In this document: positions 14,804 through 20,151 of the stretch, in pieces
Layout: every line of letters starts with the position of its first letter
Numbering within the stretch: position 1 is the stretch's first letter
Origin: a phage
DNA: 64,000 nucleotides
Reading direction: 5' to 3' (one strand)
Sequence record: OR896157.1
Position numbers and translations under genes: made by a program
Notes under the pieces: model-generated
Seen by the model: the letters and a program-made list of their open reading frames with translations, nothing else
Database searches by the model: none
Told to the model about the DNA's origin: nothing

Positions 14804-14879
14804 TGGTGCCGGTTAACGGATTCGAACCGCTGACCCTCTCATTACAAATGAGCTGCTCTACCAACTGAGCTAAACCGGC
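14804..14879 (-). tRNA. tRNA-Thr(UGU)
   Basis: hand-folded cloverleaf: acceptor gccgguu, T-loop UUCGAAU, anticodon loop uuUGUaa, CCA encoded. Confidence 0.65.
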
Positions 14880-14880
14880 T

Positions 14881-14965
14881 TGGTGCATCAAGAGGGATTC
14901 GAACCCTCAATCCTTTCGGCGGGGCATTTTAAGTGCCCTGTGTATACCAGTTCCACCATTGATGC
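14881..14965 (-). tRNA. tRNA-Leu(UAA), class II
   Basis: 85 nt, anticodon stem gggca/ugccc, loop cuUAAaa, long variable arm. Confidence 0.65.
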
Positions 14966-14971
14966 GAAATT

Positions 14972-15056
14972 TGGAGCTAGGAGTGAGATTCGAACTCACG
15001 AAGGGATACCCGGCGGATTTGCAATCCGCTGCCTTTGGCCACTCAGCAACCCTAGC
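14972..15056 (-). tRNA. tRNA with GCA anticodon (Cys) but long variable arm
   Basis: anticodon arm gcgga-uuGCAaa-uccgc, discriminator U, 13-nt variable arm ggg-uau-ccc, 85 nt. Confidence 0.5.
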
Positions 15057-15060
15057 AAAT

Positions 15061-15138
15061 TGGTCGAGGTAGAGGGATTCGAACCCGTCGACCTGTGGAT
15101 TAGAAGTCCACTGCTCTATCCAGCTGAGCTATACCCCG
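15061..15138 (-). tRNA. tRNA-Arg(UCU)
   Basis: anticodon stem gugga/uccac, loop cuUCUaa; T-stem has two mismatches. Confidence 0.55.
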
Positions 15139-15142
15139 AGTG

Positions 15143-15268
15143 TGTTCAGACAGGACTCGAACCTGTAAGCATGTTCTTGCGGCGTTTTACCACCGTCGTC
15201 AGCATATGATTCAATATGCGAACTCAAAAGGTGTTGGACCCCTTGTCTACCAATTCCAGCACTGAACA
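15143..15268 (-). ncRNA. tRNA-like stable RNA (resembles T4 small stable RNA species C/D)
   Basis: 7-bp acceptor uguucag/cugaaca and T-arm acagg-UUCGAGU-ccugu enclosing about 90 nt of non-tRNA sequence; no ORF. Confidence 0.4.
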
Positions 15269-15278
15269 ACTTTATTTA

Positions 15279-15503
15279 TTACATATCAACTTGAGTAAAC
15301 CAGTTGATTTTGAAATACTCATCAAAATGAAGAGCAGGTTCAACTTGAGTATCTTCCTCAAGAAGAATTAAATTCTTTCTTACAATCGGGTCAAGATGAG
15401 TTGTGTTTAAGCAGCTATCATGCCAATATGTAAGAACTCGATTTGATTCAGTATCAACGAGATAACGAACATTCATATCAGGATGTCGGTACAGATTAAT
15501 CAT
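15279..15503 (-). CDS. hypothetical protein
   Basis: 74-aa ORF. Confidence 0.4.
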   Translation of the reverse strand: MINLYRHPDMNVRYLVDTESNRVLTYWHDSCLNTTHLDPIVRKNLILLEEDTQVEPALHFDEYFKINWFTQVDM

Positions 15504-15506
15504 AAT

Positions 15507-15956
15507 CTATTTCTCTTGAAGCATTTTGCGTAAACGATAGAGCTGATTACAAAATTCCTTTTCAGTCAAAACTGTTTCAGAGATTTTGTTCTTGCCCATA
15601 CTGTGGGTTAATGTTGCGTTACGAGTAGCAATCAATGCTTTTTGGAATCCAGTGTTTTGAGCAAGTGCGTCATAAGCTCCAGTTAAAAGATTCTGGTATG
15701 CTTCAGATGCTCGATGAATAGGAACACCCTTCCAATAAAGTGTTTGAGTAGGCCACCAACGCTTCTTCTTACCTTTGAACTTTGCTGCCTTTCCAACCAA
15801 TGTGCAAACATGAGCTTGCATTTCAGGGTTAGAAAATTTGAGGGATTGTAAAAATCCCTCCATTGAAGCACATTCTACACCATCATAAACGAAAGCATGT
15901 GGTGCAAAGTTACTTAAAGCACAAGAAGGATATGAACTTCCAGAGCCAATGTCCAT
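15507..15956 (-). CDS. NADAR (YbiA-like) domain protein
   Basis: ALSNFAPHAFVYDGVECASMEGFLQSLKF and NLLTGAYDAL match NADAR signature blocks. Confidence 0.55.
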   Translation of the reverse strand: MDIGSGSSYPSCALSNFAPHAFVYDGVECASMEGFLQSLKFSNPEMQAHVCTLVGKAAKFKGKKKRWWPTQTLYWKGVPIHRASEAYQNLLTGAYDALAQNTGFQKALIATRNATLTHSMGKNKISETVLTEKEFCNQLYRLRKMLQEK

Positions 15957-16187
15957 TTAATTACCGTGAGATATTCTAGAAGGTTTCTTACCAAAATAAT
16001 ATTCATATGAGCCATCTAAACGACCTGCTTTAGTGCGGCAATATGAATCCCATTTCTTATAATGCCGCCATTCATCATTGTATCTTGGATGACGGTCAGC
16101 GATTAAAATCTCTAATGGCCAACCAGGCGCAAAGGAACGGAGCCGTTCGACCTTTCTAATGTATCTTTTCTTTAAGATTTTCTTCAT
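15957..16187 (-). CDS. hypothetical protein (basic)
   Basis: 76-aa ORF, Lys/Arg-rich. Confidence 0.4.
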   Translation of the reverse strand: MKKILKKRYIRKVERLRSFAPGWPLEILIADRHPRYNDEWRHYKKWDSYCRTKAGRLDGSYEYYFGKKPSRISHGN

Positions 16188-16405
16188 ATAGATTCCGACA
16201 TTACGTGAGTAGTTCTCTTTCTGATTGTAAATTGAGTTAATTCATCAACTTCACCACAACGCCAAGCGTCATCTTCAGTTTCAAAACCAAGAGCCTCGAA
16301 TAAGTTGCCTAAACGCCAACCTTCGTCAAACTCGGGGTCTCCTGAAAAATAGTAATAGTAATCGCCAGTTACTAAATCTTGAATTACAAAATCAAACTTT
16401 TCCAT
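16184..16405 (-). CDS. hypothetical acidic protein
   Basis: 73 aa, rich in Asp/Glu. Confidence 0.4.
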   Translation of the reverse strand: MEKFDFVIQDLVTGDYYYYFSGDPEFDEGWRLGNLFEALGFETEDDAWRCGEVDELTQFTIRKRTTHVMSESI

Positions 16406-16902
16406 CAGATACTTACCACAGTAATAGCTTCAGGAGCTTTAGGAATAACGATATCTTCTTCAATGTAGAAGAGCTTAAATGTTTCAGCTACACGCATAAA
16501 GTCAATATCATAACCGACTGGAGTTCCAATCAATTCTTGAATCTTATCCATCACTTTATACTGAACTTGATAGAAATCTTCAAGACGAGCATCGAATTCA
16601 TCTTCAGTATAATCACCTTCTGGGATTACAAAGCCAAGCACTTCTGAACAGAACTCTGGAGTGATTTCTTCATTTTCAACACAGTATTCAAAGAAAGCAT
16701 CACCGGAATAATCTTCATTACCCATTCCATTAGGGTCTGAATTATCAGATGCAAAACATTTAGCAACGGCACACCAACCTGAAACGTGTCTAGCATTTAC
16801 AGCATAAATCACATTCTCTTGATAATCATCGCCATCGTTTTCCCATGATACACATGATACTGCATAACCTTTAGGGATAGTTTGACCAAAGCGGAGTTCC
16901 AT
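16405..16902 (-). CDS. hypothetical strongly acidic protein
   Basis: 165 aa, about 23 percent Asp+Glu. Confidence 0.45.
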   Translation of the reverse strand: MELRFGQTIPKGYAVSCVSWENDGDDYQENVIYAVNARHVSGWCAVAKCFASDNSDPNGMGNEDYSGDAFFEYCVENEEITPEFCSEVLGFVIPEGDYTEDEFDARLEDFYQVQYKVMDKIQELIGTPVGYDIDFMRVAETFKLFYIEEDIVIPKAPEAITVVSI

Positions 16903-16912
16903 AATATTTCCT

Positions 16913-18662: not shown

Positions 18663-18668
18663 ATTGTT

Positions 18669-18743
18669 TGGAGGCGGGTGATGGACTCGAACCATCGCGT
18701 AACGGGATATGAACCCGTCATTCTACCAACTGAAGTTAACCCG
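18669..18743 (-). tRNA. initiator-like tRNA-Met(CAU)
   Basis: loop uuCAUau, GGG/CCC at bottom of anticodon stem, unpaired 1:72. Confidence 0.5.
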
Positions 18744-18898
18744 CATCTATCCGGATTCTTGAAGTACTAACAAGTAGCTTGATGTAGAACACGCTAAAGA
18801 TATAATCTTACGAATATAGAGCTTATTCCGTGGGAACAAACAGCTTCGTCCTCGGCATTATCTTACAGGACTCTGACTTATCTTCAAGAACTGCCTCG

Positions 18899-19363
18899 TT
18901 ATTTTATGAACTTATTTATGAATCGTCTAGCTTGAGTATGACTGACTCCAAGTTCATTTGCAAATTTTACTAATGCACCACGTTTTGTGAAATCAATAGA
19001 ATTATATAAATCTATTCTTAAAGCAATTTCATCTGCAGTGAATTTATGAGCATGATTTTCTGATATTTTTATTTTTGTTTCATCAGAATGATTATGTCCA
19101 GTAAAACCAGTAGATACGATTCTTCCATTTGCGCCAGCGTCTTTAGCATTTTGCGCATTAGTTGCGCAATAAATGTTATCCAAAGAATATGGTCCAACAT
19201 CTCCTTTACGACACATACAATAATTATCTGAGGCTCTACCGCGCAAATGATATTTGCCAGTAGCTTTCCACCATGATAGCCATTCATCAAATGTCAGTTT
19301 AAATTCAATACCTCTTGATTTAGCATGCACTTTTTGCATGCGATACTTTTCATAATCTTTCAT
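18899..19363 (-). CDS. homing endonuclease-like protein
   Basis: GHNHSDETKIKIS (NUMOD3-like) and C-terminal helix-turn-helix ELGVSHTQARRFINK; embedded in tRNA cluster. Confidence 0.5.
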   Translation of the reverse strand: MKDYEKYRMQKVHAKSRGIEFKLTFDEWLSWWKATGKYHLRGRASDNYCMCRKGDVGPYSLDNIYCATNAQNAKDAGANGRIVSTGFTGHNHSDETKIKISENHAHKFTADEIALRIDLYNSIDFTKRGALVKFANELGVSHTQARRFINKFIK

Positions 19364-19377
19364 ATTACTCTCATATT

Positions 19378-19454
19378 TGGCAGTGCTGACGGGTTTCGAA
19401 CCCGCGATCTCTCCCGTGACAGGGGAGTGTCTTGACCATCTCGACTACAGCACT
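19378..19454 (-). tRNA. tRNA-Asp(GUC)
   Basis: anticodon stem cuccc/gggag, loop cuGUCac. Confidence 0.6.
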
Positions 19455-19699
19455 ATAAATTTACTTTCGTGAGTATGGGATTACCCTCAAGCCTTCCGGA
19501 AAGCTGAATAGGCGTTATTGGCTCTCATATACCCGTGCACAGATATAATCTTCATTAACGCAATAACTTCATCAATATACTCCGAAAGTAAACTTTCGGC
19601 GCCGTATTTAATTTTGACTGTGTAGTTATCGTTGAGGGAACTCACAGACAGGGATTAAAGTGCCGACGACTTATCAGAACGTCTTCTGACTTCTACATT

Positions 19700-19784
19700 T
19701 GGCGGGCCGTGCAGGTATCGAACCTGCCTAGTCATTTCTGACACGGATTAACAGTCCGTCGCTTACCCTCTCAGCCAACGACCC
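19700..19784 (-). tRNA. tRNA with GUU anticodon (Asn) but class-II architecture
   Basis: anticodon arm acgga-cuGUUaa-uccgu, discriminator G, 3-bp D-stem, 15-nt variable arm guca-gaaa-ugac. Confidence 0.5.
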
Positions 19785-19789
19785 AAATT

Positions 19790-19864
19790 TGGTTCTCCGT
19801 AAGAGAATTGAACTCTTCTTTCCGACGTGAAAGGCCGGCGTCCTAACCGATAGACGAACGGAGA
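19790..19864 (-). tRNA. tRNA-Glu(UUC)
   Basis: anticodon loop cuUUCac. Confidence 0.55.
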
Positions 19865-19865
19865 T

Positions 19866-19943
19866 TGGTAGGACGTGAGGGAGTTGAACCCATCGACATT
19901 CCGATTAAAAGTCGGATGCTCTAACCAACTGAGCTAACGTCCT
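19866..19943 (-). tRNA. tRNA-Lys(UUU)
   Basis: anticodon stem uccga/ucgga, loop cuUUUaa. Confidence 0.6.
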
Positions 19944-19981
19944 GTAGATATTTATAATAACAAAAATATCTTTAAGCAAAT

Positions 19982-20057
19982 TGGTGGGAATAACTGGGCT
20001 CGAACCAGTGACCTAACGATTATCGGTCGTTTGCTCTACCAACTGAGCTATATTCCC
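19982..20057 (-). tRNA. tRNA-Ile(GAU)
   Basis: anticodon stem aacga/ucguu, loop ccGAUaa. Confidence 0.55.
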
Positions 20058-20063
20058 TGAATT

Positions 20064-20151
20064 TGGTGGGGAGTGATGGAGTCGAACCACCCGAGTCGCA
20101 ATGACAACAGATTTACAGTCTGCACCGCTACCTCTACGGAATTAACTCCCC
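20064..20151 (-). tRNA. tRNA-Tyr(GUA), class II
   Basis: 88 nt, loop cuGUAaa, discriminator A, long variable arm. Confidence 0.6.

Follow-up and report, generated by a model that had tools for sequence, protein, structure and literature searches.

The phage sequence record OR896157.1 holds, at positions 14804-20151 of the 64,000-nucleotide stretch analysed here (the window), a long array of tRNA genes that is broken up by a group of small open reading frames (ORFs) and by an endonuclease-like gene. An earlier note, written from the letters of the sequence alone, had placed this array in a T4-like phage, and that assignment can now be carried down to the genus: the array is the tRNA cluster of an Enterobacter phage in the T4-like genus Karamvirus. 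A megablast search of positions 14500-20600 against the phages in GenBank returned 24 records with at least 80% coverage, 22 of which are Enterobacter, Klebsiella or Cronobacter phages, the exceptions being Erwinia phage COW86c and Aeromonas phage PS49; the records whose taxonomy was checked all belong to Karamvirus (Straboviridae, Tevenvirinae), except COW86c, which is an unclassified record. Phage KMB20 (vB-EclM_KMB20) matched over 99% of the query at 93.3% identity and phage PG7 over 92% at 97.3%. The syntenic PG7 stretch lies between e.8 and the genes trna.4, 57B and 57A, just where T4 has its tRNA cluster. All RNA genes of the array found with ARAGORN and Rfam lie on the minus strand in one orientation, and their density is far above chance expectation. 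Loci of this kind are already well known, the T-even tRNA cluster being a recognised hotspot for endonucleases and accessory genes, and close relatives are present in GenBank. More unusual are the endonuclease, for its catalytic domain and its consistent association with tRNA arrays, a relocated adfN gene, a tRNA-like RNA that we term tl-X, and the variability of anticodon stems.

ARAGORN and the Rfam tRNA model RF00005 each called 19 loci, giving a union of 20, one of which is a homolog of T4 rnaC rather than a tRNA. The blocks and the strand given in the earlier note are therefore correct, its count of about 20 falls to 19 true tRNA genes, and where it had most of them encoding the 3' CCA, all 19 do so. 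Together they serve 18 amino acids, Ala and Val not being among them, and include all eight T4 anticodons (UCU, CAU-Ile, UGU, UGA, UGG, UCC, UAA and UUG). On the minus strand throughout, and called by both methods, are tRNA-Thr (UGU, 14804-14879), tRNA-Leu (UAA, 14881-14965), tRNA-Cys (GCA, 14972-15056) and tRNA-Arg (UCU, 15061-15138); tRNA-Ile2 (CAU, 17306-17382), embedded among the small ORFs; tRNA-Gly (UCC), tRNA-Pro (UGG, 17814-17890) and tRNA-Phe (GAA) within 17736-17971; tRNA-His (GUG), tRNA-Ser (UGA, 18200-18293) and tRNA-Trp (CCA) within 18122-18373; and tRNA-Met (CAU, 18669-18745) with tRNA-Gln (UUG) within 18588-18745. Beyond the endonuclease gene, and on the same strand, follow tRNA-Asp (GUC, 19378-19454), in an allelic form (allele A) linked to that gene, and tRNA-Tyr (GUA), tRNA-Ile (GAU), tRNA-Lys (UUU), tRNA-Glu (UUC) and tRNA-Asn (GUU) within 19700-20151, where tRNA-Tyr (20067-20151) was called by Rfam only, at 39 bits. 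The CAU tRNA at 17306-17382 is, as in T4, a tRNA-Ile2 that reads AUA; its anticodon arm matches and relatives annotate it as tRNA-Ile.

The endonuclease-like ORF to which the earlier note pointed, at 18899-19363 on the minus strand, encodes a protein of 154 amino acids that is indeed modular and endonuclease-like. With an 11-nucleotide leader that carries a ribosome-binding site, the ORF through its stop codon makes up a candidate free-standing homing-endonuclease cassette of 476 bp (18899-19374), which in an alignment running from tRNA-Asn to tRNA-Gln starts 3 nucleotides past the CCA of tRNA-Asp. Nine of the ten relatives aligned over the cassette interval have a precise empty site at this point (...GCCAAAT / CGAGGCAG..., the slash marking the junction). 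The cassette is present or absent at one exact site among colinear relatives, and it lies outside any intron or intein.

Searches with the protein sequence gave little indication of its catalytic domain. Pfam returned no nuclease domain and only a weak match to NUMOD3 (E 0.051), and neither the single sequence nor either of two profiles matched a nuclease of the PDB at the sequence level. NUMOD3, weak in this protein, is clear in its homologs, which have in common the N-terminal motif RGIEFxLTFxEW...MCRKGDxGPYSxxN...QN. A profile search recovered the N-terminal domain, which is covered by no Pfam model, in 6,350 clusters (50% identity) from metagenomes, in which it is fused to helix-turn-helix, NUMOD3 or endonuclease VII modules. 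AlphaFold models this domain with a predicted local distance difference test (pLDDT) score of about 90 as two helices and a beta-beta-alpha unit (strands 48-52 and 64-68, helix 69-78), followed by a three-helix C-terminal domain. The match of highest probability in Foldseek was PacI (0.84), but its E-value of 0.89 is not significant and the fold match is a moderate one. PacI is a His-Me finger nuclease in which a loop tyrosine takes the place of the catalytic histidine (PMC5714182, group 20). Across 76 diverse homologs, six residues of the window protein do not vary (W28, R52, D55, G57, Y59 and N72), and the invariance of Y59 and N72 fits the tyrosine-variant active site if their predicted equivalence holds. 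The model thus fits a putative PacI-like, tyrosine-type His-Me (beta-beta-alpha-metal) nuclease fold. As in R.PacI, helices precede the modelled beta-beta-alpha core, and the window protein shares the PacI-type features of lacking a catalytic histidine and having an invariant tyrosine in the loop that joins the two strands and an invariant asparagine in the helix. The two proteins differ in that their identity is 19%, with no detection of one by the other at the sequence level, that the zinc-binding cysteines of R.PacI are not conserved in the family of the window protein, and that R.PacI is a bacterial restriction enzyme whereas the window protein is a phage candidate homing endonuclease with a separate helix-turn-helix domain.

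The C-terminal half of the protein, comprising NUMOD3 and the helix-turn-helix, has about 60% identity with the matching half of GIY-YIG proteins of 200 amino acids. Among these proteins is one of Erwinia phage FBB1 that has T4 SegB as a homolog (39% identity, E 6e-36) and shares its DNA-binding half with the window protein at 60% identity; the profile of the larger family also has a weak match to the I-TevI DNA-binding domain (E 0.012). Judged from its sequence, the architecture of the 154-amino-acid protein is that expected of a classic module-shuffled free-standing homing endonuclease. SegB of T4 and T6 is likewise small and modular, has a NUMOD3-type linker and is encoded between tRNA genes, but it possesses a GIY-YIG domain where the window protein has the predicted PacI-like His-Me domain. 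Classification of the window protein as a GIY-YIG enzyme of the SegB type was considered and rejected: Pfam detects no GIY-YIG domain in it, and BLASTP against T4 SegB and the Seg-like protein of Karamvirus aligns the NUMOD3 stretch only.

Among the 11 Karamvirus relatives fetched for comparison, the gene is present in KMB20 alone, where it is 100% identical; KMB17, a genome outside these 11, has it at 94.8% identity (tblastn). More widely, tblastn matched the protein to 154 phage records, T4-like with few exceptions, and none of the matches is annotated as Hef, an endonuclease of the T4-related phages U5 and Acj9. In each of five extra genomes inspected the gene lies between tRNA genes: between those for Asp and Met in Klebsiella phage VIPKPNOM02 (94.8% identity to the window), Asp and Lys in EcS1 (Kagamiyamavirus; 71%), Tyr and Lys in KP185 (Jiaodavirus; 52%), Ser and Met in WL-3 (Tequatrovirus; 52%), and Asn and Tyr in Aeromonas phage 31 (51%), where it is annotated 'not conserved in 44RR'. 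Locations within tRNA arrays are found in at least five genera (Karamvirus, Jiaodavirus, Kagamiyamavirus, Tequatrovirus and Biquartavirus). The corresponding region of CW742 contains, at 6844-7353 on the minus strand, an intact paralog of about 160 amino acids that is unannotated in GenBank and lies between tRNA-Ile (GAU) and tRNA-Lys, which marks a second insertion site of the family within Karamvirus. T2 records retain a truncated piece of the N-terminal domain at about 67.96-68.11 kb (residues 31-79, 71% identity), which maps where T4 has its tRNA cluster and appears to lie within the tRNA region of T2. Across genera, genomes with the gene beside tRNA-Asp have the unusual tRNA-Asp allele A; allele B is the form in most genomes without it. 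Such linkage is expected where a free-standing endonuclease brings about co-conversion of the markers beside it, as is documented for SegG and, within the tRNA region of T4, for SegB.

The synteny comparison proposed in the earlier note, in which we scored every feature of the window in the corresponding region of the 11 Karamvirus genomes and of T4, shows that gene content and order vary among relatives. This variability, together with the precedent in the literature of SegB, which lies in the T4 tRNA cluster and is statistically associated with tRNA genes, supports the note's suggestion that the array is a hotspot where endonucleases insert and accessory genes are exchanged. In the type species, CC31, tRNA genes number only eight (from Gln to Tyr), and both the island of small ORFs and the other 11 tRNAs are missing; EnC07 differs from the window in its mid-array, and a 138-amino-acid ORF of this phage, considered as a relative of the endonuclease, proved unrelated. 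Four relatives have a 204-amino-acid GIY-YIG Seg-like gene between tRNA-Ser and tRNA-His, and six have, between the last island ORF and tRNA-Phe, a 185-amino-acid DUF7338 gene that is missing from the window. The variation reaches down to single tRNA genes, whose allele borders coincide with gene borders. Relative to the window, alleles are 100% or about 80% identical for tRNA-Asp, 100% or 72% for tRNA-Gln, 100% or 78% for tRNA-Lys, 100% or 87-90% for tRNA-Pro, 100% or 83-86% for tRNA-Ile2, and 100%, 91% or about 80% for rnaC. The exact combination in the window recurs in none of the 11 relatives. Even its nearest matches depart from it: PG7 lacks the endonuclease gene, has other alleles of tRNA-Asp, tRNA-Gln, tRNA-Pro and tRNA-Ser, and carries the DUF7338 gene, while KMB20 shares the identical endonuclease gene and differs in having the DUF7338 gene and in its alleles of tRNA-Lys, tRNA-Ile2 and rnaC. 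Segmental amplification of the type driven by SegB was not found in the window, where the direct repeats are all conserved parts of tRNAs.

The seven small ORFs that the earlier note had listed at 15279-17634 hold up as real open frames, each with a PHROG family of its own (E 1e-23 to 1e-55). They form a 2.4-kb island on the minus strand with tRNA-Ile2 inside it. The second, at 15507-15956, is a homolog of T4 gp30.3, now renamed AdfN, and belongs to the family of NADAR-type DNA ADP-ribosylglycohydrolases; it matches the Pfam family Phage_30_3 (PF08010) at E 1.4e-59 over profile positions 2-137 of 138 and is 42-44% identical to the copies in T4/T6-type phages, while a sequence search of the PDB gave no match for it. 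The T4 protein strips ADP-ribose from DNA and rescues the phage from DarTG1, and by homology the window protein is taken to be an anti-DarTG1 enzyme. The gene is single-copy in each genome. In T4/T6-type phages it lies at about 127-130 kb, near gene 30, whereas in Karamvirus and Jiaodavirus it adjoins tRNA-Arg, which indicates that a counter-defence gene has been relocated into the array in these two genera. The 57B ORF at 21493-21951 (minus strand), about 1.5 kb upstream of the array, is Acb1, an anti-CBASS protein (Pfam E 1.2e-58); with adfN in the island and acb1 nearby, counter-defence genes cluster around the tRNA genes. The remaining island ORFs all belong to families of unknown function: 74 amino acids at 15279-15503 (phrog_27825), 76 amino acids at 15957-16187 (not found in CW742 or Pet-CM3-4), 73 amino acids at 16184-16405, 165 amino acids at 16405-16902 (phrog_2290), 125 amino acids at 16913-17290 (phrog_3355) and 74 amino acids at 17410-17634 (phrog_5980). 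The start of the sixth ORF is most likely the ATG at 17290, since a longer version beginning at a TTG would overlap the tRNA gene. In base composition, the island and the endonuclease region are ordinary for this phage.

Codon usage, which the earlier note had proposed to compare with the tRNA set, was determined in 45 long ORFs of the window and set against 32 ORFs of one E. coli K-12 locus. The expected match is found for the eight T4-type tRNAs and not for the other 11. Codons of the eight, which are A-ending or otherwise rare, are favoured 1.9- to 7.9-fold more in the phage, with AGA at the top (7.9-fold), and this is consistent with codon compensation for an AT-rich phage. The other 11 (Lys, Tyr, His, Asn, Asp, Glu, Met, Phe, Cys, Trp and Ile-GAU) read codons with a phage/E. 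coli ratio of 0.5-1.15. They overlap with targets known for tRNA-cleaving systems, several of them being documented targets of anticodon nucleases, Septu, PARIS and Schlafen, and it is plausible that the 11 replace tRNAs destroyed by host tRNA-cleaving defences.

Variation between tRNA alleles is concentrated in the anticodon stems. Among alleles at least 85% identical, these stems hold 29 of 83 polymorphic sites on 12.6% of the positions (binomial p 1.4e-7, paired sites not being independent), as against 2 polymorphic sites in 112 positions of the anticodon loops. Pairing is maintained by compensatory changes, for example in tRNA-Leu, tRNA-Ser and tRNA-Pro, and tRNA-Leu (14881-14965) occurs among close relatives with four different anticodon stems on a near-identical body. 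A scan of IMG/VR gave a suggestive result, 28 distinct anticodon stems among 131 tRNA-Leu (UAA) genes, with several stems on an identical body being confined, in this sample, to the Karamvirus-type class and one related class. Stems are unmentioned in a study of anticodon-loop mutations in phage tRNAs. Variable stems combined with fixed loops are the pattern expected under escape from host nucleases that attack the anticodon arm, and such escape may have shaped these alleles.

Two further RNAs of the array resemble tRNAs. The first, at about 17978-18116 (minus strand), is the homolog of T4 rnaC, also known as species 1 RNA, with 94.8% identity to the T4 sequence over positions 22-79 and 89.7% over positions 111-139 in blast, and a fold z-score of -3.8. 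ARAGORN alone reports part of it (17977-18071) as a 95-nucleotide tRNA-Met, a call that we reject: the Rfam tRNA model is silent there and the sequence matches T4 rnaC. Constant across four sequence types from Karamvirus and T4 are a 7-bp acceptor stem, a T-arm and a 9-bp hairpin, in which the loop CGUCAA is fixed while seven of the nine pairs are altered on both sides; in all, 8 of 21 pairs show changes on both sides. The element is likewise labelled tRNA-Met in the GenBank record of PG7 (PG7 region 5547-5641), and in Pet-CM3-4 ARAGORN takes it for a tRNA-Phe. Miscalling of rnaC as a tRNA inflates the tRNA counts reported for such phages, and the recurring tRNA-Met label is an annotation error that is corrected here. 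In fGh-Ecl04 (region 5541-5690) and EnC15 (region 4476-4625), rnaC has unrelated sequence in place of its 5' half, the 5' acceptor strand included, which points to a recombination breakpoint inside the gene.

The second, tl-X, is an unannotated tRNA-like RNA of 126 nucleotides, read directly from the sequence at 15143-15268 (minus strand) upstream of tRNA-Arg. It can be folded with 7 perfect base pairs in the acceptor stem and 5 in the T-arm, together with a segment resembling a D-arm, two extra hairpins and a 4-bp arm that has a 5-nucleotide loop, and it encodes no CCA. The sequence occurs in 144 phage records, comprising Karamvirus and 111 Klebsiella phages (about 81% identity), in none of which is it annotated as an RNA gene. 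In an alignment of eight sequences, 98% of the cells are paired and compensatory changes affect three pairs, one of them having arisen independently in two genera; in CW742 the element has diverged, and its acceptor stem carries two compensatory changes. No Rfam family matches tl-X. An intron-bearing tRNA was rejected as an explanation on account of the absence of a 7-nucleotide anticodon loop, as was a YrlA-type RNA, for which a 23.5-bit match straddles two adjacent elements. On this comparative evidence, the rnaC homolog and tl-X would be two tRNA-derived stable RNAs that are co-transcribed with the array.

Taken as a whole, the locus is best explained as a Karamvirus tRNA cluster that has been interrupted by a homing-endonuclease cassette and an accessory island and that behaves as an exchangeable locus, a reading to which we give a probability of about 80%. 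According to this explanation, the endonuclease would, in a mixed infection, cut arrays that lack its gene, and recombinational repair would then copy the gene together with the flanking tRNA alleles. Such co-conversion would help to produce the allele patchwork of the tRNA region. With AdfN in the island and acb1 nearby, the locus would act as an exchangeable module for counter-defence and translation support. Several observations weigh against parts of this picture. In Pet-CM3-4, tRNA-Asp allele A occurs in the absence of the endonuclease gene, an exception to the linkage; for six of the seven island ORFs there is no Pfam match above the curated cut-off, no NCBIfam match and no convincing PADLOC match; the codon reference was E. 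coli rather than Enterobacter; and the argument for a counter-defence role of the 11 extra tRNAs comes entirely from the literature.

The patchiness of the endonuclease gene would also arise if the 154-amino-acid protein were a domesticated or decayed DNA-binding protein, whether a regulator or an inactive relic, that is spread and lost through ordinary recombination and deletion. The protein has no canonical catalytic histidine, finds no nuclease by sequence in Pfam or the PDB and matches PacI only moderately in fold, and the truncated remnant in T2 demonstrates that copies of the gene do decay. We nevertheless regard decay as improbable here: the ORF is intact, being 100% identical in KMB20 and 94.8% identical at the same site in Klebsiella phages of another genus, the six invariant residues (Y59 and N72 among them) are kept throughout the homologs, the empty site is precise and of cassette size, and paralogs at different inter-tRNA sites are the signature of a mobile gene. 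A question apart from the activity of the protein is whether endonucleases are the cause of the segmentation or passengers in it, the array being reshuffled mainly by homologous or illegitimate recombination among near-repeated tRNA genes and their trailers. Such recombination could use as substrates the conserved T-arm and CCA-AAU trailer, present in at least 12 copies, allele borders do fall at tRNA gene borders, and the DUF7338 gene and the island vary as well, with no endonuclease gene adjacent to them in the window. Against this stand the occupation of three separate endonuclease sites within one genus, the linkage of the endonuclease gene to a tRNA-Asp allele across genera, and the experimental proof that SegB drives preferential inheritance and amplification of the tRNA region. 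Recombination as the main cause is accordingly a doubtful account, and the two mechanisms, which are not mutually exclusive, can coexist.

A further alternative concerns what the tRNAs are for, and holds that the whole set does no more than match the codon usage of the phage to a host richer in GC, with no part in counter-defence. The GC content of the window (40%) is well below that of the E. coli locus (52%), cognate codons are enriched as a group (median ratio 1.27 versus 0.89, Mann-Whitney p 0.005), and the eight T4-type tRNAs fit codon matching very well. The codon ratios of the other 11, the documented targeting of several of them by host nucleases and the polymorphism of anticodon stems find no such explanation, and we think it unlikely that codon matching accounts for the set in full. 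Beyond the exchangeable cluster itself lies the broader idea of a diversifying counter-defence locus, in which a class of endonucleases of tRNA arrays, escape through stem variation and RNA decoys would act together; it goes beyond codon matching and is offered as speculation that we would not expect to hold in its entirety. In such a locus, the 154-amino-acid protein may, if its modelled fold is right, represent an uncharacterised class of homing endonucleases specialised for tRNA arrays that shuffles alleles between co-infecting phages, and rnaC and tl-X, with their equally hypervariable hairpins, could be decoys or sponges for anticodon-arm nucleases. Amplification of tRNA-Tyr by SegB is known to defeat Septu, and phage tRNAs are known to evade anticodon nucleases.

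Comparison with T4 shows how much of this organisation is shared. The T4 cluster has one and the same position and orientation (57A-57B...trna.4, array, e.8), and contains the eight isoacceptors, rnaC and a free-standing endonuclease gene between tRNA genes, and there too protein-coding DNA divides the array into sub-clusters. The window differs in having 19 tRNAs rather than eight, in the location of rnaC (between tRNA-Trp and tRNA-Gly in mid-array, against the array end in T4), in the additional tRNA-like RNA tl-X, in the catalytic domain of its endonuclease compared with that of SegB, and in having as its spacer a seven-ORF island that includes adfN, which in T4 is found near gene 30. Arrays of the T-even type are now seen as sites of phage-host conflict, and the window is a well-resolved natural example, with a second endonuclease family, predicted to be mechanistically different, at the same kind of site as SegB. 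To this it adds a relocated anti-DarTG1 gene, mosaics at the level of single alleles and comparative handles on two tRNA-like RNAs. These findings do not overturn current understanding.

Some non-coding features of the array can be added. Directly after tRNA-Phe, at 17695-17729 on the minus strand, a terminator-like hairpin followed by a U-run was spotted by eye and its folding confirmed (-22.3 kcal/mol, z-score -5.4); a scan for consensus promoters and terminators gave no more sites than in shuffled sequence. The spacer of 245 nucleotides between tRNA-Asn and tRNA-Asp (19455-19699, minus strand) is 93-99% conserved in Karamvirus and starts with a hairpin and then UAAGUCGUCGG, like the 5' end of T4 rnaD. 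Homology to rnaD is not supported, the alignment score of 30 not being significant against 23 +/- 4 for shuffled sequences, and a 52-amino-acid ORF in the spacer was rejected as a gene on account of 1-nucleotide indels inside it in CC31 and PG7. Because these indels break the ORF, the spacer is probably a non-coding RNA or plain spacer. The spacer between tRNA-His and tRNA-Gln (18374-18587, minus strand) has 214 nucleotides in the window, PG7, KMB20 and fGh-Ecl04, and about 109 in most other relatives.

Certain peculiarities of the tRNA genes themselves also deserve mention. A common trailer follows most tRNAs (CCA-AAU) and rnaC (ACA-AAU), for example at 14969, 17303, 17733, 18119, 18585, 19697 and 20061, and may serve them as a common signal for processing; the endonuclease cassette sits right behind one such CCA-AAU trailer. 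The tRNA-Met at 18669-18745 is the sole CAU tRNA other than that for Ile, and is initiator-like in its U1/C72 mismatch and GGG/CCC anticodon stem; there is no obvious elongator tRNA-Met within the array. Both tRNA-Cys (14972-15056) and tRNA-Asn (19700-19784) are 85 nucleotides long, with long variable arms of a shape usually confined to tRNAs for Leu, Ser and Tyr, tRNA-Cys having an 11-nucleotide insert in the Rfam alignment. Their discriminators, U73 in tRNA-Cys and G73 in tRNA-Asn, suit tRNAs for these two amino acids. In EnC07, an ordinary tRNA-Asn of 76 nucleotides takes the place of the 85-nucleotide form, and the record of Aeromonas phage 31 lists a tRNA-Phe and a tRNA-Asn of 84-86 nucleotides.

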